DNA of 59,659 nucleotides from Patescibacteria group bacterium (GCA_024654575.1 JANLHG010000020.1:121991-181649), one strand, 5' to 3'. Counted from the first letter of the stretch, positions 3,078 to 37,020 are shown. The notes: generated by a model not told the origin, from the letters alone. Translations and numbers: made by a program.

Positions 3078-5258
3078 ATGAAATTACTTATAGTAGAATC
3101 ACCAGCAAAAGCAAAAACCATTTCCAAATACTTGGATAATCTTTACACAGTCAAAGCTTCTGTTGGACATATTCGTGATTTGCCAAAGAGCAATAAAAAA
3201 GCCATTGATATAGAAAATGGTTTTATTCCCCATTATGAAATATCTCCCGGCAAAGAAAAAGTAGTGTCAGAATTAAAGTCACTCTCAAAAAAAGCTGATG
3301 AAGTCCTTTTAGCGACTGACCCCGACAGAGAAGGTGAAGCTATTGCTTGGCACATAAAAGAAGCCATTGGATTAAAAAATCCTAAACGAGTTGTTTTTCA
3401 CGAAATTACTAAAGAAGCCGTACAAGAAGCTATCAATCATCCTAGAGATATTGACGATAATCTTCGTAAAGCTCAAGAAGCCAGAAGAGTGCTTGACCGT
3501 TTGGTCGGATATGACCTTTCAGGATTAATTTGGAAAAAAGTTCGCTACGGACTTTCTGCAGGTCGTGTTCAATCCCCCGCTTTACGTATTCTTATGGAAC
3601 GCGAAAGAGAAATTCGAGCTTTTAAATCAGAAAAATATTGGAATATCTCGGCAGACGTTTTGAGTGCTTCAAAAACACCTTTCACTCTAATATGTATTAT
3701 TGAACCGAGAGATAATAAAGAAGTTGAGAGAATTGTTAAAATAGGAAATGAAGGAAATTGGACTGTTATTGGTTTAGATGAATCAGAAGCCAAAAGAACT
3801 CCCCGCCCCCCATTTATCACTTCAACATTACAACAAAGTGCTAGTACTCGTCTTGGAATGAGTCCATCTAGAACCATGGGAGTTGCTCAAAAACTTTACG
3901 AAGAAGGATTTATTACCTATATGCGAACAGACAGTACCGCTTTATCTAGTTATGCTCAAAATCAAATTGGAGAAGTTGTTGGAAAAAAATTTGGTCAAGA
4001 ATTATATGTACCAAGAGTATTTTCTAAAAAAAGCAAAAATGCTCAAGAAGCTCACGAAGCCATTCGTCCAACTCATCTATCAGATGAAAATGTTGGTCAT
4101 ACTCCAGAACAAAAATCCCTTTATAAATTAATCTGGCAACGAACAGTGGCGTCACAAATGTCAGATGCAAGAATTTTACGAACAAAAATGACAGCGAATG
4201 TTATCATCCCTTCGAATACCTCAGGGCAAGCAATTCCTGATTTTACAATCAACGGTTCAAGAGTAATTAATCCCGGTTGGCTTTTAGCAGATCCAGATGC
4301 ACGAAGTGAAGATGTTGAATTACCAAAAGTAACCGTTGGAGAAAAATTAACACTAAAAGAAATAAAAACTGAAGAAAAAGAAACTCAACCGCCATTTAGA
4401 TATTCTGAAGCTGGACTTATTAAAGAATTAGAAAAAAGAGGTATCGGCAGACCCTCAACTTACGCTAGTATCATTAAAACATTGGAAGAAAGAGGTTATG
4501 TGGATAAAATAAATAAAGCTCTTAATCCGACTGACACTGGAGATGTGGTGTCTAGTTTTTTGGAACAAAATTTTGGCAATTATATTAGCGACACTTTCAC
4601 AGCAGAAATGGAAGATAAATTAGATACCATCTCACGAGGTGAAATTGATTATGAAAAAACCTTGAAAGATTTTTATAAGCCCTTTAGTAAAGATGTAAAA
4701 TCAAAAGAGAAAATGGAAAAAGTGACAAATCTAGGTGAAGCGGATAATTCTATTGTTTGTCCTAAATGTAGCTCATCAATGGTTATAAAATTATCTAAAA
4801 ATGGAAAATTTTTGAGTTGTTCAAAGTTTCCAGAATGTAATGGAGCAAGAACAATGGAAGGAAAAGAGCTTGAAGGTCCAAAAGAATTAGATGAAATTTG
4901 TCCTAAGTGCGGTAAATCAAAATTAGTTGAAAGAGAAGGCAGATTTGGTAAATTTATTTCCTGCGGAAGTTATCCGAAATGTAAATTTATAAAAAAAGAC
5001 GCAGAACTTGAAAGACAAAATTCAACAGGAGTGAAATGTCCTCTATGTAAAGACGGAATGATGACCGAGCGACGAGGAAGGTTTGGTTTATTTTATAGTT
5101 GTTCAAATTATCCAGATTGTAAAAATGCTATAAAAGCCAAACCGACAGGAAAACTGTGTCCTGTTTGCGGAGCCTTAATGATGGAAGGCACAAAAACCAT
5201 TCCCGAGAGATGCTCGGTCAAAACTTGCCCCAATCACAATCCCCACAAGTTAGTTTGA
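3078..5258 (+). CDS. topA: DNA topoisomerase I with C-terminal Zn ribbons
   Basis: IVESPAKAKTI, ATDPDREGEAI, SAGRVQS, ITYMRTD, GIGRPSTY; repeated CPxC ribbons. Confidence 0.98.
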   Translation: MKLLIVESPAKAKTISKYLDNLYTVKASVGHIRDLPKSNKKAIDIENGFIPHYEISPGKEKVVSELKSLSKKADEVLLATDPDREGEAIAWHIKEAIGLKNPKRVVFHEITKEAVQEAINHPRDIDDNLRKAQEARRVLDRLVGYDLSGLIWKKVRYGLSAGRVQSPALRILMEREREIRAFKSEKYWNISADVLSASKTPFTLICIIEPRDNKEVERIVKIGNEGNWTVIGLDESEAKRTPRPPFITSTLQQSASTRLGMSPSRTMGVAQKLYEEGFITYMRTDSTALSSYAQNQIGEVVGKKFGQELYVPRVFSKKSKNAQEAHEAIRPTHLSDENVGHTPEQKSLYKLIWQRTVASQMSDARILRTKMTANVIIPSNTSGQAIPDFTINGSRVINPGWLLADPDARSEDVELPKVTVGEKLTLKEIKTEEKETQPPFRYSEAGLIKELEKRGIGRPSTYASIIKTLEERGYVDKINKALNPTDTGDVVSSFLEQNFGNYISDTFTAEMEDKLDTISRGEIDYEKTLKDFYKPFSKDVKSKEKMEKVTNLGEADNSIVCPKCSSSMVIKLSKNGKFLSCSKFPECNGARTMEGKELEGPKELDEICPKCGKSKLVEREGRFGKFISCGSYPKCKFIKKDAELERQNSTGVKCPLCKDGMMTERRGRFGLFYSCSNYPDCKNAIKAKPTGKLCPVCGALMMEGTKTIPERCSVKTCPNHNPHKLV
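4208..4231 (+). repeat. 24-bp REP-like element inside topA (encodes PSNTSGQA)
   Basis: CCCTTCGAATACCTCAGGGCAAGC is 21/24 identical to the copy in rpsP (22552-22575). Confidence 0.8.
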
Positions 5259-5292
5259 CTTTATATATAAAGTTTGATATACTATACAATAG

Positions 5293-5475
5293 ATGAAGAG
5301 AATAGAGGTCTCGTTTGAGAGAGGGCAATCTTCTCAGCCGGTTGTTCTCGAACAAGCAGAACCAAAATCAAATTGGCAGAAAGACTGGGAACAAGCACAA
5401 GAAGAACGCGAAGAAAGATTCGCAAAACTTCTTGTCGCTAATAAGTCAGAAGAAAAAAAATATGAGAAGAAGTAA
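5293..5475 (+). CDS. Small hypothetical protein (60 aa)
   Basis: ORF preceded by TGATATACT -10-like box and followed by a hairpin terminator. Confidence 0.5.
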   Translation: MKRIEVSFERGQSSQPVVLEQAEPKSNWQKDWEQAQEEREERFAKLLVANKSEEKKYEKK

Positions 5476-5478
5476 CGC

Positions 5479-5513
5479 AAAAGCGCCACATCATCAGATG
5501 ACATGGCGCTTTT
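5479..5513. terminator. Bidirectional intrinsic terminator
   Basis: AAAAGCGCCA...TGGCGCTTTT 10-bp inverted repeat between convergent genes. Confidence 0.75.
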
Positions 5514-5530
5514 ACTTTGCTTAAATTGAA

Positions 5531-5728
5531 TTACGCTTTTGTTACATTCTTTGCGCTGGGGCCTTTTTCGCCATCAACTACATCAAAAGAAAGAGTATCT
5601 CCTTCCTTCAATTCATCAAATGTCACGCCATTCAAATCCTTAGAATGAAAGAAAAGGTCCTTTGCTTCGCCTTCGCGAGCAATGAATCCGAATCCTTTAT
5701 CTGTAAGTGTCTTGATTGTTCCTGTCAT
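5531..5728 (-). CDS. cspA: Cold-shock protein
   Basis: KGFGFI RNP1 and LFFH RNP2, GEKGPSAKNV. Confidence 0.95.
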   Translation of the reverse strand: MTGTIKTLTDKGFGFIAREGEAKDLFFHSKDLNGVTFDELKEGDTLSFDVVDGEKGPSAKNVTKA

Positions 5729-5833
5729 GTTTTTGCTTTTTATTTTATTTTTAAATTATATGGGAAACTCGACTGCATTTCTTGATAAGTTAATTGTAGC
5801 ACAGTATTAAAAAATTAGGTAGAATGAAGTCAT

Positions 5834-5905
5834 GGCCCTATCGTCTATCGGTTAGGACACATCCTTCTCAAGGATGGAAGCGGAGTTCGACTCTCCGTAG
5901 GGTCA
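5834..5905 (+). tRNA. tRNA-Glu(CTC), CCA not encoded
   Basis: Acceptor GGCCCTA/TAGGGTC, anticodon arm CATCC-TTCTCAA-GGATG, T-arm GGAGTTCGACTCTCC. Confidence 0.95.
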
Positions 5906-5908
5906 CAA

Positions 5909-6493
5909 ATGACTAAAAAAGATATAATCAAACTTGTTACAAAAGACTTATGGATGATGAGTATTCTTAAAAAAGCCGAATCATTGAATCTACCAGATTG
6001 GATGATTGGTGCTGGATTCTTAAGAAACAAAGTTTGGAATCATTTACATAATATTAATAAAAAAACTGTTGATACAAGGGATATTGATCTTATTTATTTT
6101 GACACAAATAATATTAGTGAAAAAAATGATAAAATTTTATCTCAAAAAATGAAAGGTTCGTCAGATTTAGAATGGGAAATTGTAAACCAAGCTTATACTC
6201 ATCTTTGGAAAAATAGAAAAAAGCCTTACAAAAATACCGAGGAAGCTATTTCTGAATGGGTTGAAACCGCCACTTGCGTGGCTATTACTTTGAAAAAAGG
6301 AAAACTAGAAATCATAGCTCCACACGGTATTGATGATTTAGTTAATTTAATTTTACGACCAAGCCCGTTTTTTATAAATAAGTTAGATGTTTTTAATAAA
6401 AGAATAGAAGATAAAAAATGGTTAGAAAAATGGCCAAAACTGAAAACTGTAATAAAAAACAGCGTTGCTTCAAAGAAGCAACGCTGTGTGTGA
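5909..6493 (+). CDS. Nucleotidyltransferase family protein (DUF925/NTP_transf_6-like)
   Basis: WMIGAGFLRNKVW, DIDLIYFD, WVETATCVA, APHGIDDL motifs. Confidence 0.85.
   Translation: MTKKDIIKLVTKDLWMMSILKKAESLNLPDWMIGAGFLRNKVWNHLHNINKKTVDTRDIDLIYFDTNNISEKNDKILSQKMKGSSDLEWEIVNQAYTHLWKNRKKPYKNTEEAISEWVETATCVAITLKKGKLEIIAPHGIDDLVNLILRPSPFFINKLDVFNKRIEDKKWLEKWPKLKTVIKNSVASKKQRCV
6459..6487. terminator. 13-bp perfect hairpin (probable terminator) overlapping the nucleotidyltransferase 3' end
   Basis: ACAGCGTTGCTTC-AAA-GAAGCAACGCTGT between convergent genes. Confidence 0.65.
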
Positions 6494-6518
6494 ATTTTAG
6501 AAACCGTGGGTACCACAT

Positions 6519-7808
6519 TTACCTCCTCGTCCATTCTTCCTCCTGTCTGACAAGCAAATCAGCTTTTTGTTCTGGATGAGCCATTATTTTTTCCACTGTT
6601 CTTTCCATTCGCATAGATTGAGAACCTTTTACTAAAATAAGGTCATCTTTTGAGATAATATTTACGAGATAATCACCAGCCGAACGTGAATCATCAAAAG
6701 AAAAAATATTTTTTGCATCCATTCCCGCTTTCATCGCTCCTTCTTTAATATATTGAGAACGAACACCAACAGTCAGAAGAATATCAGCGACAACAGCAAT
6801 TTCTTCCCCCGCTTTTTTGTGTTCTTCAATAGCAAACTTACCGAGCTCCATCATATCACCAACACAGATAATTTTTCTACCAGAAATATTAATTTCTTTA
6901 CAAACTTCAAGTGCTTGATGAAGGGCAATCGGAGAAGAATTATAAGTATCATCTATAATAATGGAATCATTTTTTCCTTCGACAAGAGTCATTCTGCCTT
7001 TTGGAGAAATATGTCCAGCAAAAGATTGACTGATATCTACCATATTTATATTTTGAGAAACACCAACAGCTACAGCTGATAAGATAGGATATAAATGTTG
7101 AAGACCGAGTGTACCGAAAATAGAAATGGGTACTGAATTACCTGAAATGTTTATTTTAAAATTCATTCCAATGGGTTTTTTATTTTCATATAGAATAATC
7201 GAATTAGAACCAATAATATCCGCACCATTATTAAAACCGAAAGTGATGACTCTACCTTTAAAACTTTTTTTGAAATTCATGACATCATCATCGTCGTAAT
7301 TCAAAACGAGAACCCCATCTTTTTTCAAAGATTTAACTAAATATTCTTTTTCCTTAATAAGATCTTCGCGAGATTTAAAAAACTCAATATGAACAGGTAC
7401 GGCACTAAAACGTGTGACTACAACAATATCAGATTTAATCCATTTTGCGATATTTTTAATATCATTTGGTCTATCTGCACCAATTTCTAATGCAAGCCAT
7501 TTAGGAAAATTATGACGAATAATCAAAAGCTCCAATCCATATAGAATGTTTTTAAACCAAAGAAGAATATTAGTCCAAGCATTTGGACAACCCAAAATCG
7601 TAAGTGGAACACCAATATCACTATTGAAACTTTTTTCACTTTTTCGGATAAAAAATGTTTTACTCAATAAAGTGTAAATAGCATCTTTAGTCGAAGTTTT
7701 ACCTACATTCCCAGTAACTGTAATAATTTTCGGTTTATACTTCCAAAGTATCGCTCTGGCTTCTAACTCAAGAATTTTTGTAATTATTTTTTTAAGTATA
7801 TGCTTCAT
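6519..7808 (-). CDS. murF: UDP-MurNAc-tripeptide:D-Ala-D-Ala ligase
   Basis: ITVTGNVGKTSTK, IIDDTYNSSP, GDMMELG, LVKGSQ. Confidence 0.93.
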   Translation of the reverse strand: MKHILKKIITKILELEARAILWKYKPKIITVTGNVGKTSTKDAIYTLLSKTFFIRKSEKSFNSDIGVPLTILGCPNAWTNILLWFKNILYGLELLIIRHNFPKWLALEIGADRPNDIKNIAKWIKSDIVVVTRFSAVPVHIEFFKSREDLIKEKEYLVKSLKKDGVLVLNYDDDDVMNFKKSFKGRVITFGFNNGADIIGSNSIILYENKKPIGMNFKINISGNSVPISIFGTLGLQHLYPILSAVAVGVSQNINMVDISQSFAGHISPKGRMTLVEGKNDSIIIDDTYNSSPIALHQALEVCKEINISGRKIICVGDMMELGKFAIEEHKKAGEEIAVVADILLTVGVRSQYIKEGAMKAGMDAKNIFSFDDSRSAGDYLVNIISKDDLILVKGSQSMRMERTVEKIMAHPEQKADLLVRQEEEWTRR

Positions 7809-7811
7809 GAT

Positions 7812-9518
7812 TTATCTATCAGGTGGTATTTCATAATAATTGATTAAAAACTTAGCAATGTCAATAAAAGGACTAACTAATGTTTCCGTAGCAAATCTAG
7901 CTCCCTTTGGATTTTTAGTGAAAAGAAAGACCAAAAAACGTGGATTATATGCCGGAAAATAGCCAAAAAACGAGTGCAAAATCCTATCATCATAATAACT
8001 ACCTCTGGGGTCAGGAATTTGTGCTGTTCCAGTTTTTGCTGCAATACTATAATGTTGTAATTTAAGTCTTCCGCCACCCAGCGAAGTATCTACTGCTTCA
8101 ATAAGCATTCTAGTAATTTCTTCAGAAGTTTCTTTTTTAATAACTGTTCTCTGTTCTTCTGGAGAAATATGTTTTGAATATCCTAAAGTATAGTTTATAT
8201 CTGTAACAATATGCGGACGAATAAGTTTTCCACCATTTGCAAGTGAAGCAACGGCACGAGCAGTATTAACTGGCGTCATAGCAATTCCCTGCCCGAACGA
8301 CGCCGTAGCATGTTCAATATCTCTAGGACTTTTAAGATTAGTAATGATACCTTTGGCTTCATTTGGTAAATCAACACCAGTAAGTTCACCAAGCCCAAAG
8401 TCAGTCATATAACGAGAAAAAACATCATTACCCATTTGACTTACAGCAAAAGCAGCTCCTGTGTTTAAAGATTCATTAAGCACCACCTGCATACTGACAA
8501 TTCCTCTGCCGATACCATCAAAATTTGATATTTTTTTACCATCAAGCTCTATAAAACCTCTATCATTATATGTCGTTTTAGCGGTGATAGCTCCAGAATC
8601 AATACCCGCTGAAATGGTTAAAGGTTTTATAATAGAACCCATTTCATAAACGTTTTCAATTAGGGGATTTATAAATATGGAAGAATTTTTTTCAGACTGA
8701 AATGAATTTGGGTCAAAAGTTGGATACGAGGACATTCCATTTATTTCTCCAGTCATTGGATTTAATACAATTATTCCTGTCACTTCTGAATTCCAATTAC
8801 TACCAATTTTTTCAATAGTTTTTTCAATATAATCCTGAATTACTGGGTCAAGAGATGTCACAATATTTCCCCTTGGTTCCCCTTTTAAAATAACTCTATC
8901 TAATCCAGCAAAAATTTCAGCAAAAAAATTAATATAAATATTTTCAGTATCACGCCCCAACACTGATTCATAAGACCTTTCCAATCCATATTGTCCAGTT
9001 AATTTATTTCCTCCATTATAACCAATAAAACCTACTTCGTGAGAAGCTGATGTTCCACTTGGATAAAATCTCCATTTATCTTTATAAATTTTAATACCTG
9101 GTATTTTTAAAGCATCAATAGCATTACCGACATCTATTTCAACGTGTTTAGCTAGTTCTTCATAGGGATCATTCTTTTTCTGAGATTTTGCTAAAAAAAT
9201 ATCTTTATCAAGTGAAATTAAAGGAGAAATTTTTAAGTAAGCGTCATTTACATCTTTAATATCTCTAGGCACCATAGCAAGAGTAAAACCTTCTTTAAGA
9301 GTCGCTACTACAGAATTAGAAGCGTCTTTATTTTTAAAATAAATAGTACCACGGTCAAATATTGACTGGTTAGGCGTAATATACTGATGATTTGCTTTTT
9401 CAATAAAAATTTCACTAGAAATAATTTGTATAAAATAAAGTTTAGCAATTAAAATAACAGCAAAAAGAAATATAAAAAATGTAATAATTCTAATTCGTAA
9501 AATGAGGGCTGGTTTCAT
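7812..9518 (-). CDS. ftsI: Class B penicillin-binding protein
   Basis: SxxK (SIIK), SxN (SLN), KTGT motifs; dcw position. Confidence 0.93.
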   Translation of the reverse strand: MKPALILRIRIITFFIFLFAVILIAKLYFIQIISSEIFIEKANHQYITPNQSIFDRGTIYFKNKDASNSVVATLKEGFTLAMVPRDIKDVNDAYLKISPLISLDKDIFLAKSQKKNDPYEELAKHVEIDVGNAIDALKIPGIKIYKDKWRFYPSGTSASHEVGFIGYNGGNKLTGQYGLERSYESVLGRDTENIYINFFAEIFAGLDRVILKGEPRGNIVTSLDPVIQDYIEKTIEKIGSNWNSEVTGIIVLNPMTGEINGMSSYPTFDPNSFQSEKNSSIFINPLIENVYEMGSIIKPLTISAGIDSGAITAKTTYNDRGFIELDGKKISNFDGIGRGIVSMQVVLNESLNTGAAFAVSQMGNDVFSRYMTDFGLGELTGVDLPNEAKGIITNLKSPRDIEHATASFGQGIAMTPVNTARAVASLANGGKLIRPHIVTDINYTLGYSKHISPEEQRTVIKKETSEEITRMLIEAVDTSLGGGRLKLQHYSIAAKTGTAQIPDPRGSYYDDRILHSFFGYFPAYNPRFLVFLFTKNPKGARFATETLVSPFIDIAKFLINYYEIPPDR

Positions 9519-9814
9519 TATTGAATATGATTTGGTTGATCAGCTTGTCCCAAACCTCCTCGTGTTATGAAAATAGTTGAATCTGCATTTTTGAAACCCT
9601 GAGCATAAGCCATATCAAGATTGATACTCCCTTTAGCATTCATATATTGTGTTTCAAGATCACTAATAGAAGAAAGAATATCATTTGCCTCTTTTTCAAC
9701 TTTTTCTCTTGTAATAACATTGACAATTGTCTGTCTAACTAAAAAGGCATAAAAAACAAAAGTAAATGTTAAAACTGGTAGTATTATTAAAATGAATTTT
9801 TTAGGTGTGTTCAT
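9518..9814 (-). CDS. ftsL: FtsL-like cell division protein
   Basis: TM plus coiled coil, located between rsmH and ftsI. Confidence 0.6.
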   Translation of the reverse strand: MNTPKKFILIILPVLTFTFVFYAFLVRQTIVNVITREKVEKEANDILSSISDLETQYMNAKGSINLDMAYAQGFKNADSTIFITRGGLGQADQPNHIQ

Positions 9815-10707: not shown

Positions 10708-10712
10708 ACGGT

Positions 10713-11147
10713 TTACAACATTCCTACCTGTCCGAGCTTTTCTGCCAAAGCGTCTGCTTGTTTTTCAACAACCGCTTTATGCTCGCTCCACGACTTCTCG
10801 TTCCAAATTTCTGCTCTACTATGAACTCCGATAATAACTACTTTATTATCCAAATGAGCCCAATCTTTCAAAAAATCTGGAACCAGAATTCGTCCTATTG
10901 AATCAAACTCTACTTCAGTCGCGCCACCGAACATAAAACGAGCAAATCTTCTATTGTCGGCTTGAAGTATTGATAATTCAGAAAGTTTACCAGAAACTTT
11001 TTCCCATTCTTTTGTAGTGAAAATAAATATGCAGTTATCCAAACCCGGTATCAACACAATTTTTTTACCCATCTCTTTTCTAAATTTCACAGGCAAAGAT
11101 AATCTATTTTTTTCATCTATGCTGTGTGTATATTCGCCGATTAACAT
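10713..11147 (-). CDS. mraZ: Transcriptional regulator MraZ
   Basis: GEYTHSIDEKNRL, DSIGRILVP, EIW motifs. Confidence 0.97.
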   Translation of the reverse strand: MLIGEYTHSIDEKNRLSLPVKFRKEMGKKIVLIPGLDNCIFIFTTKEWEKVSGKLSELSILQADNRRFARFMFGGATEVEFDSIGRILVPDFLKDWAHLDNKVVIIGVHSRAEIWNEKSWSEHKAVVEKQADALAEKLGQVGML

Positions 11148-11239
11148 TTTTATGTTTTTTTGTTATCCACACTTCCTAAATTAAAACCTTTGGTTTTAAT
11201 CGGACGAACCCCAATAAAGTTTTATTCTTGGGGTTTTAG

Positions 11240-11258
11240 TCCCACTTATTCCCACTTA
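11240..11258 (-). promoter_or_regulatory. MraZ operator repeats (TAAGTGGGA x2, 10-bp period)
   Basis: TCCCACTTA at 11240 and 11250, just downstream of a TTGCAT-17-TACACT promoter on the minus strand; MraZ is known to bind GTGG/TGGG direct repeats. Confidence 0.7.
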
Positions 11259-11344
11259 CATACAAGTGTATAGCACCCTTTCCAACAATGCAATAGTAAA
11301 AGTCCACATAATATGTGGACAAACTGTGGAAAACAAGGGGATTA

Positions 11345-11521
11345 TTAATTAGGTTTTTTATCCTTATAGAGAAGTTGTTTCAAGTTTTCTTCCCATTCTT
11401 CACTTTTTTCTCCAGAAATTGCTAACTTATTCGCAATATCTTGAATTAGACCGAGCCGGTTTCCCGGGACGATCACCATAACTCGCACTAGCGAGCCGAG
11501 CATGTCTTTTTTTGATGACAT
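11345..11521 (-). CDS. Small hypothetical protein (58 aa), not in ORF track
   Basis: MSSKKDMLGSLVRVMVIVPGNRLGLIQDIANKLAISGEKSEEWEENLKQLLYKDKKPN*, preceded by GAAAGG SD-like site. Confidence 0.6.
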   Translation of the reverse strand: MSSKKDMLGSLVRVMVIVPGNRLGLIQDIANKLAISGEKSEEWEENLKQLLYKDKKPN

Positions 11522-11621
11522 AGTCTACCTTTCTTTTGACTTATTTTGTCAATGTGTGGCTACTCCATTTCACCACACTCTTTTTTTAAGATATCACGAA
11601 TAATATTATTAGTCAAATAAA

Positions 11622-11669
11622 AACAACCCCCTTAGTAAAGGGGGTACCTGTAATCAGGCGGGGGTTGTT
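11622..11669 (-). terminator. Compound terminator after lysS
   Basis: AACAACCCCC/GGGGGTTGTT outer stem, internal CCCCCTT/AAGGGGG and CCTG/CAGG hairpins, T-tract on the minus strand. Confidence 0.65.
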
Positions 11670-13122
11670 ATTTCCTCGGTCTCAAAAGTGGAAAAAATTG
11701 AGTTTCGCGAAGAGGTTTATCTGCTAGAAAAGCAAAAAGGCGTTCACCAAAACCAAACCCGCAAGTTGGTGGCATAGCATACTCAAGCATTTCCACAAAT
11801 TCATAATCTGGCATCATTGCTTCTTCATCTCCAGCATCAATAAGTTTTTGTTGAACTTCAAATCTTTTAGCTTGATCAATAGGGTCATTTAATTCTGAAT
11901 ATCCTCTACCCATTTCACTTCCAGCAATAATTGGTTGAAACATTTGTACAATATTTTTTCCTTCAACAGATTTCGCTAGTGGACCAACCAATTTAGGGTG
12001 ATTAATAAGAAAAGCTGGACCAGAAATATTTTTTCTGCAATATTTCCATAATGTATCTGTCAATCGTTCTTTATTTTCACCATCATATTTAACTCTTAAA
12101 TCTTTAAGTTTAATTTTCATCTCTTTTTCTGTAGCCGTTAGTACATCAATATCAATCTGTTTTTTTATTTCTTCAACATAATCAATTTTTATCCATTCAT
12201 CATTTAAATCAAACGAATGACCTCTAGTGGTAAATTTTGACATTCCAAAAACTTCTTTAGCGATTTTTCGATATAATTCCTGAGTTAATTTCATACCATC
12301 TTCATAATCAGCATATGCCCAATAAAGTTCCATATTGGTAAACTCCTGTAAATGTTCTGGACTAGAACCTTCATTTCGATAAACTCTTCCTATCTCAAAA
12401 GTTTTTTGAAAACCAGCAGACATCAGTCTTTTTTGCCAAAACTCCCCCACAGAGATACGTAAATAGACATCCATATCATAATCATTGTGGTGCGTTTTAA
12501 ATGGTCGTGCTTCTGCTCCACCAGTAGTGACTTCTAAAGTTGGTGTTTCTACTTCAAGAAAACCTCTCTCAATCAAAAAATCTCTAGTGACTTTCCAAAA
12601 TTGTGCTTTTTTATAAAAAAGTTCTTTAAGTTCTAGGTTCATTAAGATATCAAGATAACGATGTCGATATCTTTCTTCAAAATCTTGCAACCCATGCCAT
12701 TTTTCTGGTAATGGTAATAAAGACTTACTAGCAATTATCCAGGACTTAACCAAAATACTTTGTTCTCCTCTTTGTGTAGTAAAAAATTTTCCAGTAACAG
12801 AAATAAAATCGCCTATATCTACTGCATCAACGAAAAGTTTAAATATTTTTTCATCAATTTCATCTTTCTTAAAAACAGCTTGAAACTTTTCTTTACCATC
12901 ATAGAGAACAATAAACAATATTGCTCCTTGACCTCGTATAGCCATCACCCTCCCAGCTAAAGAAACTTCTTTCTCCTTTTTTTCATATTCGGAAAAGTTT
13001 TTCTTTGCATCAAAAAGACAAAAATCGCGAGGAATCTTGCTTGGATATGGATTCATTTCGGCTTCTTTTAATAATTCAAGTTTTTTGAGCCGAATTTCTT
13101 TTAATTCTTCTAATGAAGACAT
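11668..13122 (-). CDS. lysS: Lysyl-tRNA synthetase (class II)
   Basis: RYRHRYLD, EVETPTL, ARPFKTHHN, YLRIS, RVYRNEG, GFGERL. Confidence 0.98.
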   Translation of the reverse strand: MSSLEELKEIRLKKLELLKEAEMNPYPSKIPRDFCLFDAKKNFSEYEKKEKEVSLAGRVMAIRGQGAILFIVLYDGKEKFQAVFKKDEIDEKIFKLFVDAVDIGDFISVTGKFFTTQRGEQSILVKSWIIASKSLLPLPEKWHGLQDFEERYRHRYLDILMNLELKELFYKKAQFWKVTRDFLIERGFLEVETPTLEVTTGGAEARPFKTHHNDYDMDVYLRISVGEFWQKRLMSAGFQKTFEIGRVYRNEGSSPEHLQEFTNMELYWAYADYEDGMKLTQELYRKIAKEVFGMSKFTTRGHSFDLNDEWIKIDYVEEIKKQIDIDVLTATEKEMKIKLKDLRVKYDGENKERLTDTLWKYCRKNISGPAFLINHPKLVGPLAKSVEGKNIVQMFQPIIAGSEMGRGYSELNDPIDQAKRFEVQQKLIDAGDEEAMMPDYEFVEMLEYAMPPTCGFGFGERLFAFLADKPLRETQFFPLLRPRK

Positions 13123-13125
13123 TTT

Positions 13126-13596
13126 TTATTTAACTTCAATAATTGAATAATGTACATCACCATTAGGTGTCCTAACTATCACAGATTCTTTTTTCTTTTT
13201 ACCTAAAAGTGCTAAACCTAAGGGAGCAAGGTTGGAAATTTTATTTAAGGACAAGTCAACTTCTTCAGAACCAACAATTTTATATTCTTTGTTATCTTTT
13301 TCTCCTTCTTTTTTGATTATAACAGTAGAACCAACACCAACCGTATCTTCATGTCTGTCAGAAAGTAAGACTGCCGTTTTCATCATCGTTTCCAGCCTCA
13401 TTATCCTATCCTCAACACTTGCCTGCATCTCTCTAGCTTCTTGATATTCAGCATTTTCTGATAAATCTCCTAAAGCTTTAGCATACTCAAGATTTTCAGC
13501 CACTTCTTTTCGTTTTGTGGTTTTTAAAAAATCAAGTTCATTTTTAAATTCTACTAATTTCTCTTTTGTAAGATACTGAGTTTCTTCTTGTGCCAT
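13126..13596 (-). CDS. greA: Transcription elongation factor GreA (start moved to MAQEE)
   Basis: GDLSENAEY, ISNLAPLGLAL. Confidence 0.95.
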   Translation of the reverse strand: MAQEETQYLTKEKLVEFKNELDFLKTTKRKEVAENLEYAKALGDLSENAEYQEAREMQASVEDRIMRLETMMKTAVLLSDRHEDTVGVGSTVIIKKEGEKDNKEYKIVGSEEVDLSLNKISNLAPLGLALLGKKKKESVIVRTPNGDVHYSIIEVK

Positions 13597-13639
13597 TTTG
13601 TTTAAAATTAATTGTCTTAATATCTTAACACTAAAAATA

Positions 13640-16600: not shown

Positions 16601-17287
16601 ATCAGTATTTTTAAGAAGGTCGTAAATAGCTTCGGCACCTATACCAGCCTCAAATATCACTCCGTATTTCATTCCAAATTTATGATATTGAGCTTCATCA
16701 AGAACCATCCCTGGTTGAATGCTGTCAATCTCTTTTTTCGCATTCAAAAAAAGTTCTTTAAGAGCTAATTTTGTTTTTTCGTCATTTGCACCTTTTACTT
16801 TTGTTTTATATTCATTATCAAGTTCTTTTAAGAATCCATCTTTTGCTTCTTGGTGTATTACAGTAATTATATAGCCCGCAAAATAAATAACTTTTTCTAA
16901 ATCTCCAGTCGCCATACCCATCACTAAACCTATTCTTGAAGGCATACTTCGTAAAAACCAAATATGAGAAACAGGTGTTGATAATTCAATATGTCCCATT
17001 CTCTCTCGTCTTACTATTGACCTAGTAATTTCAACTCCACACTTTTCGCAAATAATTCCTTTATATCTAATACCTCTGTATTTTCCACAATAACACTCGT
17101 AATCTTTGTCTGGACCAAATATTTTTTCATCAAATAATCCATTTTTTTCAGAACGTTGAGTTCGGTAATTTATCGTTTCTGGTTTTGTCACTTCACCAAA
17201 AGACCATTCTTTTATTCGGTCAGGAGAAGCCAATTTTAGATTAACTACATCAAAATCGTTTATATTTGTTTTGGAATTATTTATCAT
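13640..17287 (-). CDS. rpoC: RNA polymerase beta' subunit
   Basis: Zn-finger CYCGKY/CEKC, NADFDGDQMAVH catalytic motif, GEPGTQLTMRTFH. Confidence 0.99.
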   Translation of the reverse strand: MINNSKTNINDFDVVNLKLASPDRIKEWSFGEVTKPETINYRTQRSEKNGLFDEKIFGPDKDYECYCGKYRGIRYKGIICEKCGVEITRSIVRRERMGHIELSTPVSHIWFLRSMPSRIGLVMGMATGDLEKVIYFAGYIITVIHQEAKDGFLKELDNEYKTKVKGANDEKTKLALKELFLNAKKEIDSIQPGMVLDEAQYHKFGMKYGVIFEAGIGAEAIYDLLKNTDLQKLKESLQKEVENSGATDKEKLNKRLSLVSSMILSGIRPEWMFLTRIPVIPPALRPMVPLDGGRFATSDINDLYRRVINRNNRLIKLKEISAPDVILRNEKRILQEAVDSLIDNSIRHGNNLFSGANQAQKRTLKSLSDNLKGKRGLFRQNLLGKRVDYSGRSVIVVGPELRLDQCGLPKHMALELFKPFVISGLLKKELAYNIRGAGRLIDDGIPEVWAILEDVIKNRYVLLNRAPTLHRLGIQAFKPILIEGNAIQVHPLVCTAFNADFDGDQMAVHVPLGIEAQAEAREIMASNKNILKPGNGDPTVVSKLLDIVLGCYWMTKSVDGEKGEGKYFACINDAITSYDFGVVSFRAKVKVLPLETPKYAQFEGKIFETSVGRLLFNSVLPDDYPFINKEIDKKKMSAIIDDLINKYGIENVPDILDRIKAFGFKYVTHAGITWGIDDIKVPQGKDEVVAKSHIQSERVVEQFNEGLLTVDERIRKNLEIWHKTKNDVEKLIPATLDKMGSVFDMITSGARGSMSQITQMVGMKGLITDTAGSTIEMPIISCSKEGLTPIEYFTTTHGSRKGLTDTALNTAKAGYLTRKLFVVAQDVMVSEEDCGSKDFIIIKKDGDTGIDIPLSKNIRGRIVASDILSLNGEVMFKKGHLLTKDDATAVEDAGIKEVSVRSPLSCKSDKGICAKCYGIDLGRNKLVEIGEAIGTVAGQAIGEPGTQLTMRTFHSGGTASVGGDITSGLPRVEEVFEKRRPKNPAVVNIVDGIVSDIQDLGKEKIIKVIPELEDRSKVKKKEIEYTVHYKRMSLVKVGDKVMKGDIITDGSADIDEVFKYGGKDKARNYVIAEVSKIYELQGETVSRKHIEVIVRQMFSRKRIKDAGNTSMSIGNIVDSYEFDIENKEAKTQGLEEAKADSVVMGITEVSLSRRSFLSAASFQHTTKILINSAIRGNSDKLDGLMENVIIGRLIPAGTGFEGSPKSEMIKKTIAK

Positions 17288-20200
17288 ATATTTTTTTTAA
17301 GTTCTACATCAAGAGCTAATCCTCTCAAACTATTTAAAAGCACATTAAACGAAGCAGGAGTACCCGGTTGATTTAGTGGTTCATCTTTCACAATTGAATC
17401 AAATGCGGCTGAACGACCGATAATATCGTCAGATTTAATAGTAAGCATTTCACGAAGTGTGTGAGCTGCACCATGTCCCAAAAGTGCCCAAACTTCCATT
17501 TCTCCAAATCTTTGTCCACCACCTTGTGCTTTTCCTCCAAGAGGTTGTTGAGTAATAAGAGAGTAAGGACCAATTGAACGCATGTGAATTTTATCCTCAA
17601 CCATATGGTGAAGCTTCATAATATACATATATCCAACAGCAATATTTTGATCAAAAGCCACACCAGTTCTTCCATCAAAAAGTTTCATTTTACCATCTTC
17701 ATTAAAACCAGCTTTAACAAGTTCTTCTTTTATTTCAGTATCTGTAGCTCCAGCAAATGGAGGTACAACAGCTTGATAATTAAGAGTGTTTGCAGCCAAA
17801 CCAAGATGCAATTCTAGAATTTGTCCCAAGTTCATACGACTAGGTACACCAAGCGGAGTTAATATGATATCTATCGGTGTCCCATCAGCCATATAAGGCA
17901 TATCTTCTACAGGAAGAATACGTGAGATAACTCCCTTGTTTCCGTGTCTTCCAGCTAATTTATCACCCACCGACACACTTCTTAATTGAGCTACTTCAAT
18001 ATATATTTTTTTAATAATTCCAGATTCTAATTTATCTCCTTTTTCTCTTGAAAAAACTTTAATACTGATAACTCGTCCTCTTTTACCATTTTCAATTCGC
18101 TTTGAAGTATCTTTAACATCTCTAGCTTTTTCACCAAAAATTGAACGCAAAAGTCGCTCTTCTGGAGTCAGTTGTGTTTCACCTTTTGGAGTAATTTTAC
18201 CAACTAAAATATCACCCGGTCTCACTTCTGCACCAATTCTAATGATTCCGTCTTCAGCTAGATTTTTAAGTTTTGATTCACCCACATTTGGAATATCACA
18301 AGTAGTTATTTCTGGACCAAGTTTTGTATCACGAACATTAACTACGAATTCTTCAATATGGAATGAGGCGAATTTATTTTCTTTCACAAGTCGTTCAGAA
18401 AGAATAATTGCGTCTTCATAGTTTGAACCAGACCAAGACATAAAACCTACTAAAATATTTTGTCCTAAAGCAATCTCACCCTTATCAGATGTTGATGTGT
18501 CAACAAGTACATCACCCTTTTTAACTTTATCTCCAAAATTAACCGCTGGACGTTGATGAAAAGCTGTAAAACCATTTGTCCTTTGAAAATGAATTAGATT
18601 ATAATCATAAACTTTACCTTTATTGTCTTTAAATGATACCCTTCTTGCATCTGAGTAAGTAATTATTCCATCGGCTGGTGCATTCACAATTCTTCCAGTA
18701 TCTACAACCGCTTTTTCACCAATACCAGTAGAGACTAAAGGTGCTTCCGGAACAATACAAGGAGTTGCTTGCTTTTGCATGTTAGAACCCATCAGAGCTC
18801 TGTTAGCATCATCATGATTTAAAAATGGAATTAATGATGTAGCCACTGAAAATGGTTGCATTGAGGAAACATCAATATATTCAACGTCATTCCTTTTAAC
18901 AAATTCTGGTTTTCCATTCAATCTAACTTCAACTTCATCTCCCACAATTTTTCCAGATTTATCATATTCAGTCGCACCATGAGCAATTTTATAATTTTCA
19001 TCTTCAAGAGCATTCATATAGACAATTTCCTTGGTTACCATACCATCTTTTACTTTTGCATAAGGAGTTTCAATCATTCCAAATTCGTTTATTCGAGCAT
19101 ATGTTGAAAGGTGAAGAATAAGACCAATGTTCGGACCTTCAGGAGTGTGAATTGGACAAAGACGACCGTAGTGAGAAGGGTGAACATCTCGAACTTCAAA
19201 ACCAGCACGTTCTCTAGTTAAACCTCCTGGACCTAAAGCAGAAAATAGTCTAAGATGTTCCAATTCAGTGAGAACATTTTCCTGTTGCATAAACTGTGAA
19301 AGTTGGTTTGTGGTAAAAAATTCTTTAATTCTAGCTTGAAGTGGTCTTGGCGAAACAAATTGCACTGGAAGTGTAACATCTGGGTCAACAGTAGACATTC
19401 TATCCTGAATATTTCTTTTCATTTGTGACATTCCCACTCTTATTTTTTGTTGAAAAAGTTCTCCAACTAAACGCACTCTTCTTGAACCAAGATGGTCAAT
19501 ATCATCTTCCATTGCGTCCAAAGTATTATTTAATTTCACAATATTACTGATAATGATGGCCACATCATCAACTGTAATCAGTTTTTTAGTCATATCGTTC
19601 TCCGTCATTCCCAAACCAAATCTTTTATTGAATCTCATTCTACCTACCTTTGAAATATCATATCTTTCCTCACTAAATATTCCTTTTATAAAATCTCGTG
19701 CGTTATCTGCAGTAGCTAAATCACCATCACGAAGACGCTTATGAATTTCCATATACGAATCACCCACATTCTTAGCATGGTCTTTAGTAAGTGTCATTTC
19801 TATTACTGATTTTGTGTCTTCATCACCTTTAAAAAGAGTTTTAATTTGTTCGTCTGTTTCTGCTCCTAAAACTCTCAAAAGTGATGTAATAGAAAACTTA
19901 CGCTTTCTATCTATTCGAACATATATCGTACCGTCAGCATCACTTTCAATCTCAATCCATACTCCACGAGCTGGAATAATCTTGGCACCAAAAAATTTCT
20001 TTCCTTTACTTTCATTTGCTGTAAAAAATACCCCGAATGAACGGGCTAATTGAGGAACGATTACTCTTTCAATACCATTAACAATAAATGTTCCATGGTT
20101 TGTCATCATTGGAAAATCAGCCAAGAAAATCTCCTGTTCTTTAGTAGAATCTATTGTTTTGTTTTTCAATTTTATTTTTGCCTTCAGTTGTACTTCATAA

Positions 20201-20439
20201 GAAAGTTTGTTTGTTTTTGCGTAATGTTCTTCGTATTTAGGTTGTGATAATTCAAAACCAGTGAAAGATAAATCAAATTTTTTATTGGAATAATCTCTAA
20301 TCGGTGAAAACTCTTTAAAAACTTCTTCTAAACCTTTTTCAATAAGCCATTTAAAAGATTCCGTTTGTGCTTCTACGAAATTAGGCATTTCTACCAAAGG
20401 CTCTCTATATTTCCCAAAATATTTTTTAATTTTTTTCAT
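17284..20439 (-). CDS. rpoB: RNA polymerase beta subunit
   Basis: HYGRLCPIHTPEGPNIGL, GDKLAGRHGNKGV, GQRFGEMEVWAL. Confidence 0.99.
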   Translation of the reverse strand: MKKIKKYFGKYREPLVEMPNFVEAQTESFKWLIEKGLEEVFKEFSPIRDYSNKKFDLSFTGFELSQPKYEEHYAKTNKLSYEVQLKAKIKLKNKTIDSTKEQEIFLADFPMMTNHGTFIVNGIERVIVPQLARSFGVFFTANESKGKKFFGAKIIPARGVWIEIESDADGTIYVRIDRKRKFSITSLLRVLGAETDEQIKTLFKGDEDTKSVIEMTLTKDHAKNVGDSYMEIHKRLRDGDLATADNARDFIKGIFSEERYDISKVGRMRFNKRFGLGMTENDMTKKLITVDDVAIIISNIVKLNNTLDAMEDDIDHLGSRRVRLVGELFQQKIRVGMSQMKRNIQDRMSTVDPDVTLPVQFVSPRPLQARIKEFFTTNQLSQFMQQENVLTELEHLRLFSALGPGGLTRERAGFEVRDVHPSHYGRLCPIHTPEGPNIGLILHLSTYARINEFGMIETPYAKVKDGMVTKEIVYMNALEDENYKIAHGATEYDKSGKIVGDEVEVRLNGKPEFVKRNDVEYIDVSSMQPFSVATSLIPFLNHDDANRALMGSNMQKQATPCIVPEAPLVSTGIGEKAVVDTGRIVNAPADGIITYSDARRVSFKDNKGKVYDYNLIHFQRTNGFTAFHQRPAVNFGDKVKKGDVLVDTSTSDKGEIALGQNILVGFMSWSGSNYEDAIILSERLVKENKFASFHIEEFVVNVRDTKLGPEITTCDIPNVGESKLKNLAEDGIIRIGAEVRPGDILVGKITPKGETQLTPEERLLRSIFGEKARDVKDTSKRIENGKRGRVISIKVFSREKGDKLESGIIKKIYIEVAQLRSVSVGDKLAGRHGNKGVISRILPVEDMPYMADGTPIDIILTPLGVPSRMNLGQILELHLGLAANTLNYQAVVPPFAGATDTEIKEELVKAGFNEDGKMKLFDGRTGVAFDQNIAVGYMYIMKLHHMVEDKIHMRSIGPYSLITQQPLGGKAQGGGQRFGEMEVWALLGHGAAHTLREMLTIKSDDIIGRSAAFDSIVKDEPLNQPGTPASFNVLLNSLRGLALDVELKKNI

Positions 20440-20575
20440 AATATATACAAATAAAAAAGGCCTTATTCTCTAAAGGTTACGTTATTTAATATTCAATTTA
20501 TATTTTTTTAAGCAATGAGGACCAATTAACCTTGTAATCCTTCGTGCTTTCACCCGTAACACAATCGCGCTGAAG

Positions 20576-20611
20576 TTATCCACAGTATACACCTACCTAT
20601 TTTCTTGTCAA
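20576..20611 (-). promoter_or_regulatory. sigma70-type rpoB promoter with adjacent DnaA-box-like site
   Basis: TTGACA-16-TATACT on the minus strand, immediately followed by TGTGGATAA (20576-20584). Confidence 0.6.
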
Positions 20612-20630
20612 ATTTTAAGGGGTTTAACCC

Positions 20631-21566
20631 CTAAATTAAAGAAACCTGGGATTTGATGACAGAGAATGGGATGAGGTCGTATGTGACTCCTTCTATATCT
20701 TTCACTGGAATAGTAATACGAATAGCTAAACCATGAGTGGTGTTATACGAAAAATCTTGGTCAAAAATAAAATTACCTAAAGAATAGAAGATTTTCTTAT
20801 TTTTATACTCTTCAACCGGTTCAACAACATGCGGGTGAGCTCCAATAACTAAATCCGCACCATTATCAATAAATTCATGAGCTTTATTTTGTTGGTCTTC
20901 AGTATAACTCACATTATATTCAACTCCCCAATGTGCAAAAACAATAAGAAAATCCGTAACAGAACGTAAACGAACAATTTCTGAGATGATTTTGTCGTAA
21001 TTTTTATAACTAAACTCGTGATAACCGACAAAACCGATTTTAATTCCATTAATATTCTTTATTATTGAAATTTCATCTGCATTTAATGGATCACCAAAAT
21101 AATCAATATCGTTTTCCAAAAGATACTTTTTTGTTTCCAACAATCCTCCATTTCCAAAATTAAGAGTGTGGTTATTCGCCAAACCAACTAATGTGATACC
21201 TTCATTTTTAATCAACGACGCTGTTGTTGTAGCGAATGTAAATTGTAATGGAGCATCTTTTTTACCTAGAGTTTTTGATGAATTTGAAGTAATTGGCCCT
21301 TCAAGGTTTGCCAAAATAATATCGCTATCTCTCAGTAATCCACGAATATTTATAAAAGGATAATCAGAACCATATTTATTCATATAATATCTCACTCCTC
21401 TATCAAACATCATATCTCCAAAAGCGAGAATAGTTACGAATTTTTCTTCAGGAGAAATTACTACTGAAGCAGTATTTGGATTTTCAATATGAATAACCGA
21501 AGGAGGCACTTTACTTAGTGCAAAAACAGCCAGTACGAGAACTAGAAATGTAATGATTTTTTCCAC
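20631..21566 (-). CDS. CapA family (PGA_cap, metallophosphatase-like) exported protein
   Basis: GDMMFDRG, ANLEGPI, LANNH, HWGVEY, GAHPHVV, YSLGNFIFDQ. Confidence 0.92.
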   Translation of the reverse strand: MEKIITFLVLVLAVFALSKVPPSVIHIENPNTASVVISPEEKFVTILAFGDMMFDRGVRYYMNKYGSDYPFINIRGLLRDSDIILANLEGPITSNSSKTLGKKDAPLQFTFATTTASLIKNEGITLVGLANNHTLNFGNGGLLETKKYLLENDIDYFGDPLNADEISIIKNINGIKIGFVGYHEFSYKNYDKIISEIVRLRSVTDFLIVFAHWGVEYNVSYTEDQQNKAHEFIDNGADLVIGAHPHVVEPVEEYKNKKIFYSLGNFIFDQDFSYNTTHGLAIRITIPVKDIEGVTYDLIPFSVIKSQVSLI

Positions 21567-22180
21567 TCTTCAATTTTAGCACGGTTACCAGAAAGCAAAA
21601 TTTTTGGTACTTTATATTTTTTATCTTTATAGACAAAAACTTCCGGACGAGTATAAACATCTTTTGAGGCAGTTCTAGATTCTTCAAGAGAATTAAAATT
21701 ACCCAAAACTCCTTCAACTTGCCGAGACATAACATCAACCATAATCATTGCTGGTAATTCCCCACCAGTCAAAACAAAAGGACCGACTGAAACCTCTTCC
21801 ATTTTGAAAACTTTTTTTACCCTAGCATCTATACCTTCATACCGTCCACAGATGATTATTATATGCTCATATTTTTTTGTAATTTTCTTTGCGTAACTGT
21901 TATCAAATTGTTTACCTGACGGACTTAACCAAATTAGTTTGTAAGATTTTGGTGGTAGTTTATTAATAGCTTTTTCTATAGCTTTGATGACAGGTAAGGC
22001 TTCAATCACCATTCCCGGTCCTCCACTATATGGTTTATCATCAACACGCCCATCTGAATAATCACGTGGGTTATAAAATTTCACCTTAATTTTTCTATCT
22101 TCAATAGCTCGTTTCAAAATAGATTCCCCTAGATAGGAATCAAAACTATTTGGAAATAGGGTTATAAGATGAAAAGTCAT
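21542..22180 (-). CDS. trmD: tRNA (m1G37) methyltransferase
   Basis: DDKPYSGGPGMV, CGRYEGID, VLTGGELPA. Confidence 0.97.
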   Translation of the reverse strand: MTFHLITLFPNSFDSYLGESILKRAIEDRKIKVKFYNPRDYSDGRVDDKPYSGGPGMVIEALPVIKAIEKAINKLPPKSYKLIWLSPSGKQFDNSYAKKITKKYEHIIIICGRYEGIDARVKKVFKMEEVSVGPFVLTGGELPAMIMVDVMSRQVEGVLGNFNSLEESRTASKDVYTRPEVFVYKDKKYKVPKILLSGNRAKIEEWKKSLHF

Positions 22181-22488
22181 TAAATCTTCAAATCCGCCAT
22201 GGCTTCGTCAACTGTTTTTATGGTTCTTTCTGGTTTTATTCCACCCTCTGGTTCGTTGATTTTTAAATTAACACGAGAATTGTTTTTCATTCCAACAACA
22301 CGAAGAAGAGTTCTGATGGCTTTTGCAGTATTACCAGAACGTCCAATTACTTTCCCCATATCAGCAGAATTAACATCAAGAGTCATTAACACACCCATTT
22401 CATCAACAGTTCTATTAATTTTTACACTATCAGGATTATCAACAAGCGCCTTTACCACATATTCCAAAAATTGCGTATCTTTTTCCAT
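22180..22488 (-). CDS. khpA: KH-domain RNA-binding protein
   Basis: DMGKVIGRSGNTAKAIR; located between rpsP and trmD. Confidence 0.92.
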   Translation of the reverse strand: MEKDTQFLEYVVKALVDNPDSVKINRTVDEMGVLMTLDVNSADMGKVIGRSGNTAKAIRTLLRVVGMKNNSRVNLKINEPEGGIKPERTIKTVDEAMADLKI

Positions 22489-22523
22489 ATTATTGTAATT
22501 ACCTTTCTATTAATTCTTTAATT

Positions 22524-22886
22524 TTACACCTTTGGTGCTTCTGGAGCAACAGCTTGCCCTGAGCTTGTCGAAGGGGTTGCTTCTACTTTTGCTTCTTCTT
22601 TTATAATTGGTCTTTTCATCGGTAAGACATTTCGCTTTTTACCAGTCAGAATTTTGTGATTAATTAAAAGATTATGAACTGTGTCAGAAGGTTGAGCTCC
22701 TTTTGAAATCCAATATTTAACTTTTTCTTCATTCAAATTATCAATGGTTTTTTTATCTTGTGGATTATATGAACCAAGTATCTCAAGAGACCTTCCACTC
22801 TTTGGACTATTTTTAGAATCAGTAAGTACAAGGCGAAATGCTGTCGCATGTTTCCTTCCTACTCTCTGTAATCGTATTTTTAACAT
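22524..22886 (-). CDS. rpsP: 30S ribosomal protein S16 (start at MLKIRL)
   Basis: MLKIRLQRVGRK, LGSYNP, GAQPSDTV. Confidence 0.97.
   Translation of the reverse strand: MLKIRLQRVGRKHATAFRLVLTDSKNSPKSGRSLEILGSYNPQDKKTIDNLNEEKVKYWISKGAQPSDTVHNLLINHKILTGKKRNVLPMKRPIIKEEAKVEATPSTSSGQAVAPEAPKV
22552..22575 (-). repeat. 24-bp REP-like element in rpsP tail (encodes PSTSSGQA)
   Basis: CCCTTCGACAAGCTCAGGGCAAGC; paralog of 4208-4231. Confidence 0.8.
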
Positions 22887-22923
22887 AGTTCGTATAGTAG
22901 CAAAAGGATAGATAAAGGTCAAT

Positions 22924-37000: not shown

Positions 37001-37020
37001 ATTTTCTATATTATATTAAA

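Follow-up and report, generated by a model that had tools for sequence, protein, structure and literature searches.

How the same short GC-rich hairpin comes to lie in frame within two unrelated essential genes is the question raised by a stretch of 59,659 nt from a Patescibacteria group bacterium (GCA_024654575.1 JANLHG010000020.1:121991-181649; this whole stretch is referred to as the window). One copy of a 24-nt element, copy A, is located in topA, which codes for DNA topoisomerase I, and a second, copy B, in rpsP, which codes for ribosomal protein S16. Homologs of the window TopA are labelled Taylorbacteria, Parcubacteria, Paceibacterota or Patescibacteria, and the host is a Parcubacteria/Paceibacterota-type member of the candidate phyla radiation (CPR). 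On balance, and with moderate confidence, both sites are considered to be solo copies of a stem-loop repeat that is short (24-25 nt), GC-rich, selfish and retained only at permissive in-frame sites.

A shared 24-nt element in topA and rpsP

Copies A and B share 21 of their 24 nucleotides, with all three mismatches (positions 9, 10 and 12) falling within the proposed loop. Both copies lie on the coding strand of their gene and are read in the identical frame. These properties had been claimed in an earlier note on this DNA, which listed the two 24-mers with their positions and strands, loop-confined differences, coding orientation and PS(N/T)(T/S)SGQA peptides; coordinates and sequences were confirmed, as were the peptides PSNTSGQA and PSTSSGQA by translation (Table 1). 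A search of the window with a free loop and up to three mismatches returned A and B only, compared to no match in 100 shuffles, and no further copies were found in the 59.7 kb when up to five mismatches and loops of 2-6 nt were allowed (0 to 0.4 in shuffles). The window contains 22 cases of two 24-mers matching at 21 or more positions, and all but the A/B pair have a GC content of at most 42%; the A/B repeat has 58% GC in a genome of 33% GC. Around both copies, the GC content drops to background within a few bases. The codons common to A and B are rare here, as TCG accounts for 7.9% of serine codons and GGG for 6.9% of glycine codons, and the GC content at third codon positions of window genes is 20%. 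Therefore, the identity of A and B is a property of the DNA rather than of codon habit. Their resemblance is that of a genuine repeat family rather than a coincidence.

The TopA protein of the window matches E. coli TopA in the PDB at E = 3e-142. When 45 TopA proteins were aligned, it alone was found to have the segment IIPSNTSGQA, situated between TANV and IPDF. The PSNTSGQA peptide was found in 0 of 119 other TopA homologs retrieved. The nearest relative (P0002 of L001, 89-90% identical) has TSKN at this site, and at the DNA level 30 nt of the window gene stand against 12 nt in L001. Alignment with E. coli TopA leaves an 11-residue gap at the insert, which identifies this loop as one known to vary. 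The AlphaFold model shows a coil at residues 377-388, with lowered confidence (pLDDT 74-78), that connects strands 364-376 and 389-398, and copy A is predicted to form the tip of a beta-hairpin, a tolerant surface site.

Other GC-rich palindromes were observed in the same TopA loop (equivalent to window positions 4203-4232) of two homologs. P0023 (L286) carries CCTTGCGCAAGG twice in tandem, and P0042 (L287) carries CCCGCCACTGAC...GTCAGGCGGG, a CCCGCC..GGCGGG hairpin; the beta-hairpin tip looks like an insertion hotspot across Patescibacteria lineages. In a groundwater metagenome run (X1) containing a related strain at ~4x depth, the contigs break off at 4197 and start again at 4270, with the gap (4198-4269) bracketing the topA element. 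This gap could reflect low coverage or strain variation and gives no reliable indication of whether the element is present.

Copy B is located in the C-terminal extension of S16, outside the Pfam S16 domain, where the tail is variable. The closest relatives over the S16 core, P0125 (89%) and P0121 (86%), do not carry the element. P0122 (84%) has CCCTTCGA-CAGA-CTCAGGGCAAGC, placed after KKDAA rather than after KVEAT, and this copy was assembled independently from two samples (L002, ENA; L003, JGI). Exact deletion of the 24-mer from the window rpsP joins ...EAT to VAPEAPKV, which matches the tails of P0124 and P0125. Judging from these sequences, the history of S16 might have involved either two independent gains or one gain and several losses, as both fit.

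The earlier note had further expected clean gaps of eight residues in orthologs. This held insofar as both copies are extra relative to close orthologs, but the net gain in TopA is six residues (IIPSNTSGQA for TSKN) and the S16 tail is too variable for an exact gap. Instead of aligning through the two sites without an indel, the orthologs compared reveal an 18-nt gain of topA over L001, and the closest S16 relatives are devoid of the element. The expected placement in surface loops agrees with the TopA peptide at a modelled beta-hairpin tip (AlphaFold) and the S16 peptide in the tail.

Table 1. Positions of the element copies, their host genes and related features. Positions are those of the window unless a contig is named.
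Feature	Position	Strand	Remarks
topA, type IA DNA topoisomerase I, 726 aa, host of copy A	3078-5258	+	Pfam Toprim, Topoisom_bac, three Zn_ribbon_Top1
topA segment differing from orthologs	4203-4232	+	codons 376-385, IIPSNTSGQA; replaces TSKN; net gain 18 nt
Copy A, CCCTTCGA-ATAC-CTCAGGGCAAGC	4208-4231	+	in frame in topA; full 24-mer CCCTTCGAATACCTCAGGGCAAGC; product P378-A385 of TopA, PSNTSGQA
Copy A outer stem, 5' arm CCCT	4208-4211	+	in minimum-energy fold; two outer pairs covary across family
Copy A outer stem, 3' arm AGGG	4223-4226	+	partner of CCCT at 4208-4211
rpsP, ribosomal protein S16, 120 aa, host of copy B	22524-22886	-	start ATG at 22886; Pfam S16 domain residues 8-67
Copy B, CCCTTCGA-CAAG-CTCAGGGCAAGC	22552-22575	-	in frame in rpsP; full 24-mer CCCTTCGACAAGCTCAGGGCAAGC; product S16 residues 105-112, PSTSSGQA
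Perfect 18-nt GC palindrome CCTGCCTGCGCAGGCAGG	23327-23344	.	adds six residues, LPAQAG, in 2-hydroxyacid dehydrogenase gene (22924-23907, -) adjoining rpsP
RNase P RNA copy, L073	3331-3354		loop CAAG
RNase P RNA copy, L114	1638-1662		loop CTTCG
RNase P RNA copy, L090	~4231-4254		loop TAAA

A third insert of different sequence is found next to rpsP in a dehydrogenase gene (Table 1). Its peptide LPAQAG corresponds to a clean six-residue gap in the 84% identical ortholog of L004, and the palindrome CCTGCCTGCGCAGGCAGG was also detected in 25 viral contig stretches in varied contexts, often within longer stems. Comparison of 15 window genes with their L001/L004 orthologs revealed window-specific insertions of at least four residues only in topA, rpsP and, as LPAQAG, the dehydrogenase gene. 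As these only three larger insertions are all GC hairpin modules, GC-rich hairpin modules are the main source of larger insertions in the genes of this lineage. A 10-bp GC hairpin in the FBA gene (24026-24048) was considered as a further insert and rejected, as it encodes residues conserved in the ortholog. The neighborhood differs in gene content as well: between the dehydrogenase gene and rpsP, L004 (6658-10041) has a 1127-residue gene of unknown family, while the window (22887-22923) has none.

Distribution and structure of the hairpin family

One genome per species (596 Gb in total) was scanned for the exact pattern CCCTTCGA-N2-8-CTCAGGGCAAGC. At least 120 genome loci in over ten phyla matched, compared to ~8-20 estimated by chance. 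Phyla among the matches listed comprise Acidobacteriota, Chloroflexota, Cyanobacteria, Planctomycetota, Proteobacteria, Bacteroidota, Verrucomicrobiota, Nitrospirota and Actinobacteria, next to ~25 CPR genomes, and the Cyanobacteria include the cultured Nodularia, Anabaena and Baaleninema. In IMG/VR viral contigs, 45 stretches with the exact pattern were identified, with less than one expected by chance. The copies were gathered by exact arm match, and arm conservation is thus partly built into the sampling. Their loops are strongly non-random among the matches listed (CAAG 31, CAGG 14, CTTCG 14, GG 9, CTCCG 8). Copy B carries the commonest loop of the family; the ATAC loop of copy A matched none of ~180 other copies examined.

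The flanks of the copies are unrelated to one another. In variant copies, CCCTTCGA...CTCAGGG is retained and the CAAGC tail is variable. Tandem and inverted arrays of the unit are found between genes in one Pseudomonadota genome, and such intergenic mosaic arrays, some of them terminator-like, were observed at L007, L041, L056 and L089. Five viral contigs (L130, L142, L150, L157 and L167) share a homologous gene (...HTDSIAVEG[PS.GSGQA]RLI...) with the element at the same place; its arms are identical and its loops differ (CAGG versus GCGG). The earlier note had proposed an active repeat family in this lineage. A family is indeed present (at least 120 loci and 45 viral stretches), but its range extends over many phyla and viral contigs rather than being peculiar to this lineage, and activity here would rest on one gain, that in topA, since the split from the 89-90% identical relative.

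The CCCT/AGGG stem proposed in the same note gained support from covariation. For this analysis, 130 distinct viral sequences were chosen by the inner 15-mer CTTCGACAAGCTCAG alone, with no constraint on the flanks. Watson-Crick pairing is observed for the first flanking pair in 82% of these sequences (CG 65, GC 24, AU 10, UA 5) and for the second in 73% (CG 49, UA 27, GC 13), and double changes are numerous. The covariation score of 0.265 compares to 0.123 for shuffles, of which 0 of 500 reach 0.265, and to at most 0.114 with slid partners. Positions outside the stem show no conservation. This strong covariation indicates that the stem is real at the family level and encloses a sequence-conserved core. 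Folding energy alone would wrongly dismiss the hairpin. The tandem G.A mismatches of the stem would form on the reverse-complement strand, and such tandem G.A pairs may stabilise CCCTGAGCTTGTCGAAGGG or its complement, as single-stranded DNA or RNA, beyond what the folding model captures.

Within CPR genomes, the exact element is located inside genes for YchF (Daviesbacteria), GroES (Yanofskybacteria), FolD and PolX (Saccharibacteria) and PolA (Paceibacterota). Further hosts are RecG, a CCA-adding enzyme with the element on the opposite strand (Jorgensenbacteria) and a pilin leader. Comparison of the Yanofskybacteria GroES with a solved structure revealed a gap of exactly eight residues, PSTGSGQA, and a change of exactly one 24-mer argues for a discrete inserted unit. 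Loop insertions at the element, again relative to solved structures, amount to 6 residues in YchF, 5 in FolD and 11 in PolA. In RecG, PolX, the CCA-adding enzyme and the pilin leader, the element is read in other frames. All five open frames are used by gene-internal copies, which occur in both orientations relative to genes; the hydrophilic PST..SGQA frame is the commonest, and alternative readings of the same DNA include FDKLRAS, LRQAQGK and, on the opposite strand, ALSLSKG.

Non-coding RNA genes were also found to contain the element. The P9 region of RNase P RNA (Rfam RF00010) is made up of the element's reverse complement in three genomes, one of Nealsonbacteria and two of Saccharibacteria, with differing loops (Table 1), and these copies end in a conserved AAGGGUGAAA. 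In two other CPR genomes (L072 5433-5456 and L023 5478-5502), the reverse complement borders on a tRNA gene and overlaps its 5' end by 2-3 nt, and the element would consequently be part of the pre-tRNA leader. [quoted passage not shown]

Origin of the copies

A selfish repeat would account for these observations in the following manner. The module consists of a conserved inner core, CTTCGA-loop-CTCAG, an outer stem in which pairing is kept while the sequence varies (here CC..GG), and a variable CAAGC tail. Transfer into topA and rpsP would have taken place on the level of DNA, with each copy entering as a discrete unit and causing no target-site duplication. As ~95% of the genome is coding, only copies that keep the frame, contain no stop codon and lie in structurally tolerant places would persist, here the beta-hairpin tip of TopA and the disordered C-terminal tail of S16. 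The encoded P-S-(T/N)-(S/T)-S-G-Q-A would be a small, hydrophilic and flexible peptide that a surface loop could absorb. The host would probably derive no benefit, the element being tolerated as selfish DNA with protein lengthening as a by-product. As duplications are lacking and the element has the form of a hairpin, movement is suggested to involve either a single-stranded hairpin intermediate that is processed in trans, for example by an HUH/RAYT-type enzyme (RAYT, REP-associated tyrosine transposase), or templated repair. The existence and wide spread of the family, the covariation of its stem, the absence of both copies from close orthologs, the loop position in TopA and the insertion of a discrete 24-nt unit in other CPR genes have been shown, whereas the selfish nature and the means of movement are what we infer.

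Several observations weigh against such a repeat. A Pfam analysis of the 56 open reading frames (ORFs) of the window revealed no transposase, reverse transcriptase or RAYT-like gene. Target-site duplications were not seen at the filled sites inspected by eye (topA, rpsP in the window and in L002, and GroES), and the flanks of seven filled sites have no common target sequence. Removal of the 24-mer from topA leaves a loop two residues shorter than in every ortholog, which indicates that the topA event was not a simple insertion. Predicted folding energies (DNA -0.9 to -1.7, RNA -2.7 to -4.7 kcal/mol; z near 0) are not better than those of shuffles. REP-like selfish repeats are normally species-specific, and conservation of a core across phyla is unusual for them. 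Finally, the window density is only two copies per 60 kb, neither copy deviates at any of the 20 constrained positions and decayed versions were not found in the window, which could equally mean selection on the sequence itself.

A broader interpretation, put forward tentatively and with less than even confidence, is that the CTTCGA-loop-CTCAG core in its covarying stem represents an undescribed hairpin module of many bacteria and phages. Such a module would have a dedicated trans-acting partner, either a moving enzyme or a reading factor, and would have colonised, in CPR bacteria, not only essential proteins but also tRNA leaders and RNase P RNA at P9. A 15-nt core common to distant phyla and phage contigs, with pairing kept, points to such unrecognised mobilising or reading machinery. 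If true, this would constitute a general route for minimal genomes to acquire protein and RNA insertions.

Alternatively, the hairpin might be a functional nucleic-acid signal, for instance a site bound or processed by a widely conserved protein or RNA, with the coding copies maintained for this role. A conserved 15-nt core within a covarying stem is typical of structures that are recognised, many phyla and phage contigs share this core in near-identical form, and the perfect window copies without decayed ones fit the same picture. The same applies to the reverse complement in RNase P RNA P9 of three CPR genomes and at tRNA 5' ends in two others, and to orthologous copies that keep their arms while the loop changes (CAAG versus CAGA in S16, CAGG versus GCGG in the viral gene). 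Against a signal, copies are oriented either way with respect to genes and use every open frame, their hosts are unrelated genes, close relatives do well without copies, the density is low (two per 60 kb), and part of the arm conservation stems from sampling by exact arm match. This explanation is regarded as rather unlikely.

It was also considered that both copies are patches of foreign DNA recombined into the genome after DNA uptake, and not the result of element movement within it. CPR bacteria carry competence genes, dprA is located directly upstream of topA, and copies of the element are known from phage contigs as well as from different phyla. The topA event swapped ~12 nt for 30 nt rather than inserting cleanly, and its ATAC loop has no counterpart among the ~180 other copies. 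On the other hand, no extended foreign tract is visible in the flanks, whose GC content is at background within a few bases, and the GroES change of exactly one 24-mer points to a discrete unit. Foreign patches are regarded as an improbable source.

Selection for the peptide PS(T/N)(S/T)SGQA, as a linker or modification site arising independently in the two proteins, is largely refuted and retains very little probability. Both copies share the frame that is commonest among gene-internal copies of other CPR genomes, but they are identical at synonymous positions with rare codons (joint probability of five shared codons ~5e-4), the same DNA is read elsewhere as FDKLRAS, LRQAQGK or, from the opposite strand, ALSLSKG, and the element is also present in RNA genes and between genes. 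A chance resemblance or a metagenome assembly artefact is scarcely credible: the source is a metagenome assembly and contigs of a related strain in the groundwater run break around the topA site (4198-4269), but shuffles give 0 matches, an in-frame rpsP element was recovered twice, in assemblies made independently of each other and from separate samples (L002, ENA; L003, JGI), cultured cyanobacterial genomes contain the element, and both reading frames are intact.

Genomic context and comparison with known systems

The window is ~95% coding and dominated by housekeeping genes, including those for SerRS, DprA, TopA, a mraZ-rsmH-PBP-Mur cluster, GreA, RpoB/C, TrmD, KhpA and S16, as well as pentose-phosphate enzymes, GyrB, PheS, EF-Ts, S2 and SecA. 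An Rfam scan of the window identified three tRNAs only. Between mraZ and a class II Lys/Asp/Asn-type tRNA synthetase gene, 520 nt (11148-11667) contain no ORF and exhibit GC-rich stretches and an 8-bp hairpin (11626-11645); this gap may be an undescribed RNA or leader. A 108-codon ORF without family match (37016-37342) overlaps a very GC-rich stretch of ~100 nt (37232-37340). Permissive Rfam scans of the GC-rich regions 11100-11700 and 36950-37400 gave no credible match. Towards the end of the window (58800-59659), the GC content rises from ~30% to 53-56% over the last ~800 bases, a region that includes an ORF of 214 aa on the minus strand (58941-59585) with no convincing family match and that could be foreign DNA or an assembly join. 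In SecA (44144-46579), the DEAD-like domain spans residues 5-409 against a profile of 290 positions, implying an insertion of ~115 residues, which is another case of an expanded CPR protein.

Proteins and RNAs of CPR/Patescibacteria are known for unexplained insertions. The element described here provides one concrete, traceable source of these, with examples in TopA, S16, GroES, PolA, YchF, FolD and RNase P RNA. In practical terms, it marks recent indels for strain typing. For annotation, it should be kept in mind that peptides such as PSTSSGQA, FDKLRAS and LRQAQGK derive from a repeat.

Several known systems resemble the element in part. DNA uptake sequences are copies of one short motif that occur about once per kb in a competent species, in contrast to the two copies in 59.7 kb and the lack of degenerate copies observed here. 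The mobile GC clusters of yeast mitochondrial DNA (for example those in var1) are GC-rich palindromic modules of ~30-50 bp in a very AT-rich genome, which are optional between strains and may be located in frame within the gene of a small-subunit ribosomal protein. For these clusters, gene conversion in crosses is a documented means of spread. They belong to a different genetic system and their sequences are unrelated to the element. MITEs, such as ERIC, BOX, the Coxiella QMITE and Anabaena MITEs, are non-autonomous repeats that can fuse in frame with host ORFs (PMC10969869). The element is likewise a non-autonomous repeat in frame within host ORFs, but MITEs comprise 50-500 bp with terminal inverted repeats and target-site duplications, whereas the element is 24 nt in length and has neither terminal inverted repeats nor, at the filled sites inspected, flanking direct repeats.

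REPs are extragenic, highly abundant and species-specific and possess a conserved GTAG foot that is recognised by a cognate RAYT. They are GC-rich imperfect stem-loops of 20-40 nt (PMC3184786). In size class and as a short GC-rich imperfect palindrome, the element is similar to REPs and bacterial interspersed mosaic elements, and it also forms intergenic mosaic arrays elsewhere and shows no target-site duplication. It differs from them in that both window copies are intragenic and limited to two in 59.7 kb, the flanks are unconserved, no RAYT (Y1 HUH) is encoded among the 56 window ORFs, and the core is common to different phyla.

RPEs are palindromic repeats found in frame in unrelated housekeeping genes, at fold-compatible positions and without an associated transposase (PMC10969869, citing Ogata et al. 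2000). The same arrangement is observed here: insertion in frame in unrelated housekeeping genes of a reduced, AT-rich genome, at fold-compatible sites and with no transposase. RPEs are, however, ~100-150 bp in length, confined to Rickettsia and present in dozens of copies per genome (44 in R. conorii), and they form long, stable hairpins. In contrast, the element has 24-25 nt with a 4-bp outer stem of weak predicted stability, occurs in many phyla and on phage contigs, is present in two copies in 60 kb and has no sequence relationship to RPEs. As regards a stable palindrome, its outer stem covaries across the family, and the energies predicted for it amount to only -0.9 to -4.7 kcal/mol (z near 0). 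It is much shorter than RPEs and not lineage-specific. Taken together, the element falls outside RPEs, REPs and MITEs as these are defined, yet it works like a Rickettsia palindromic element, and the analogy to these elements drawn in the earlier note proved apt as a description of its way of working.

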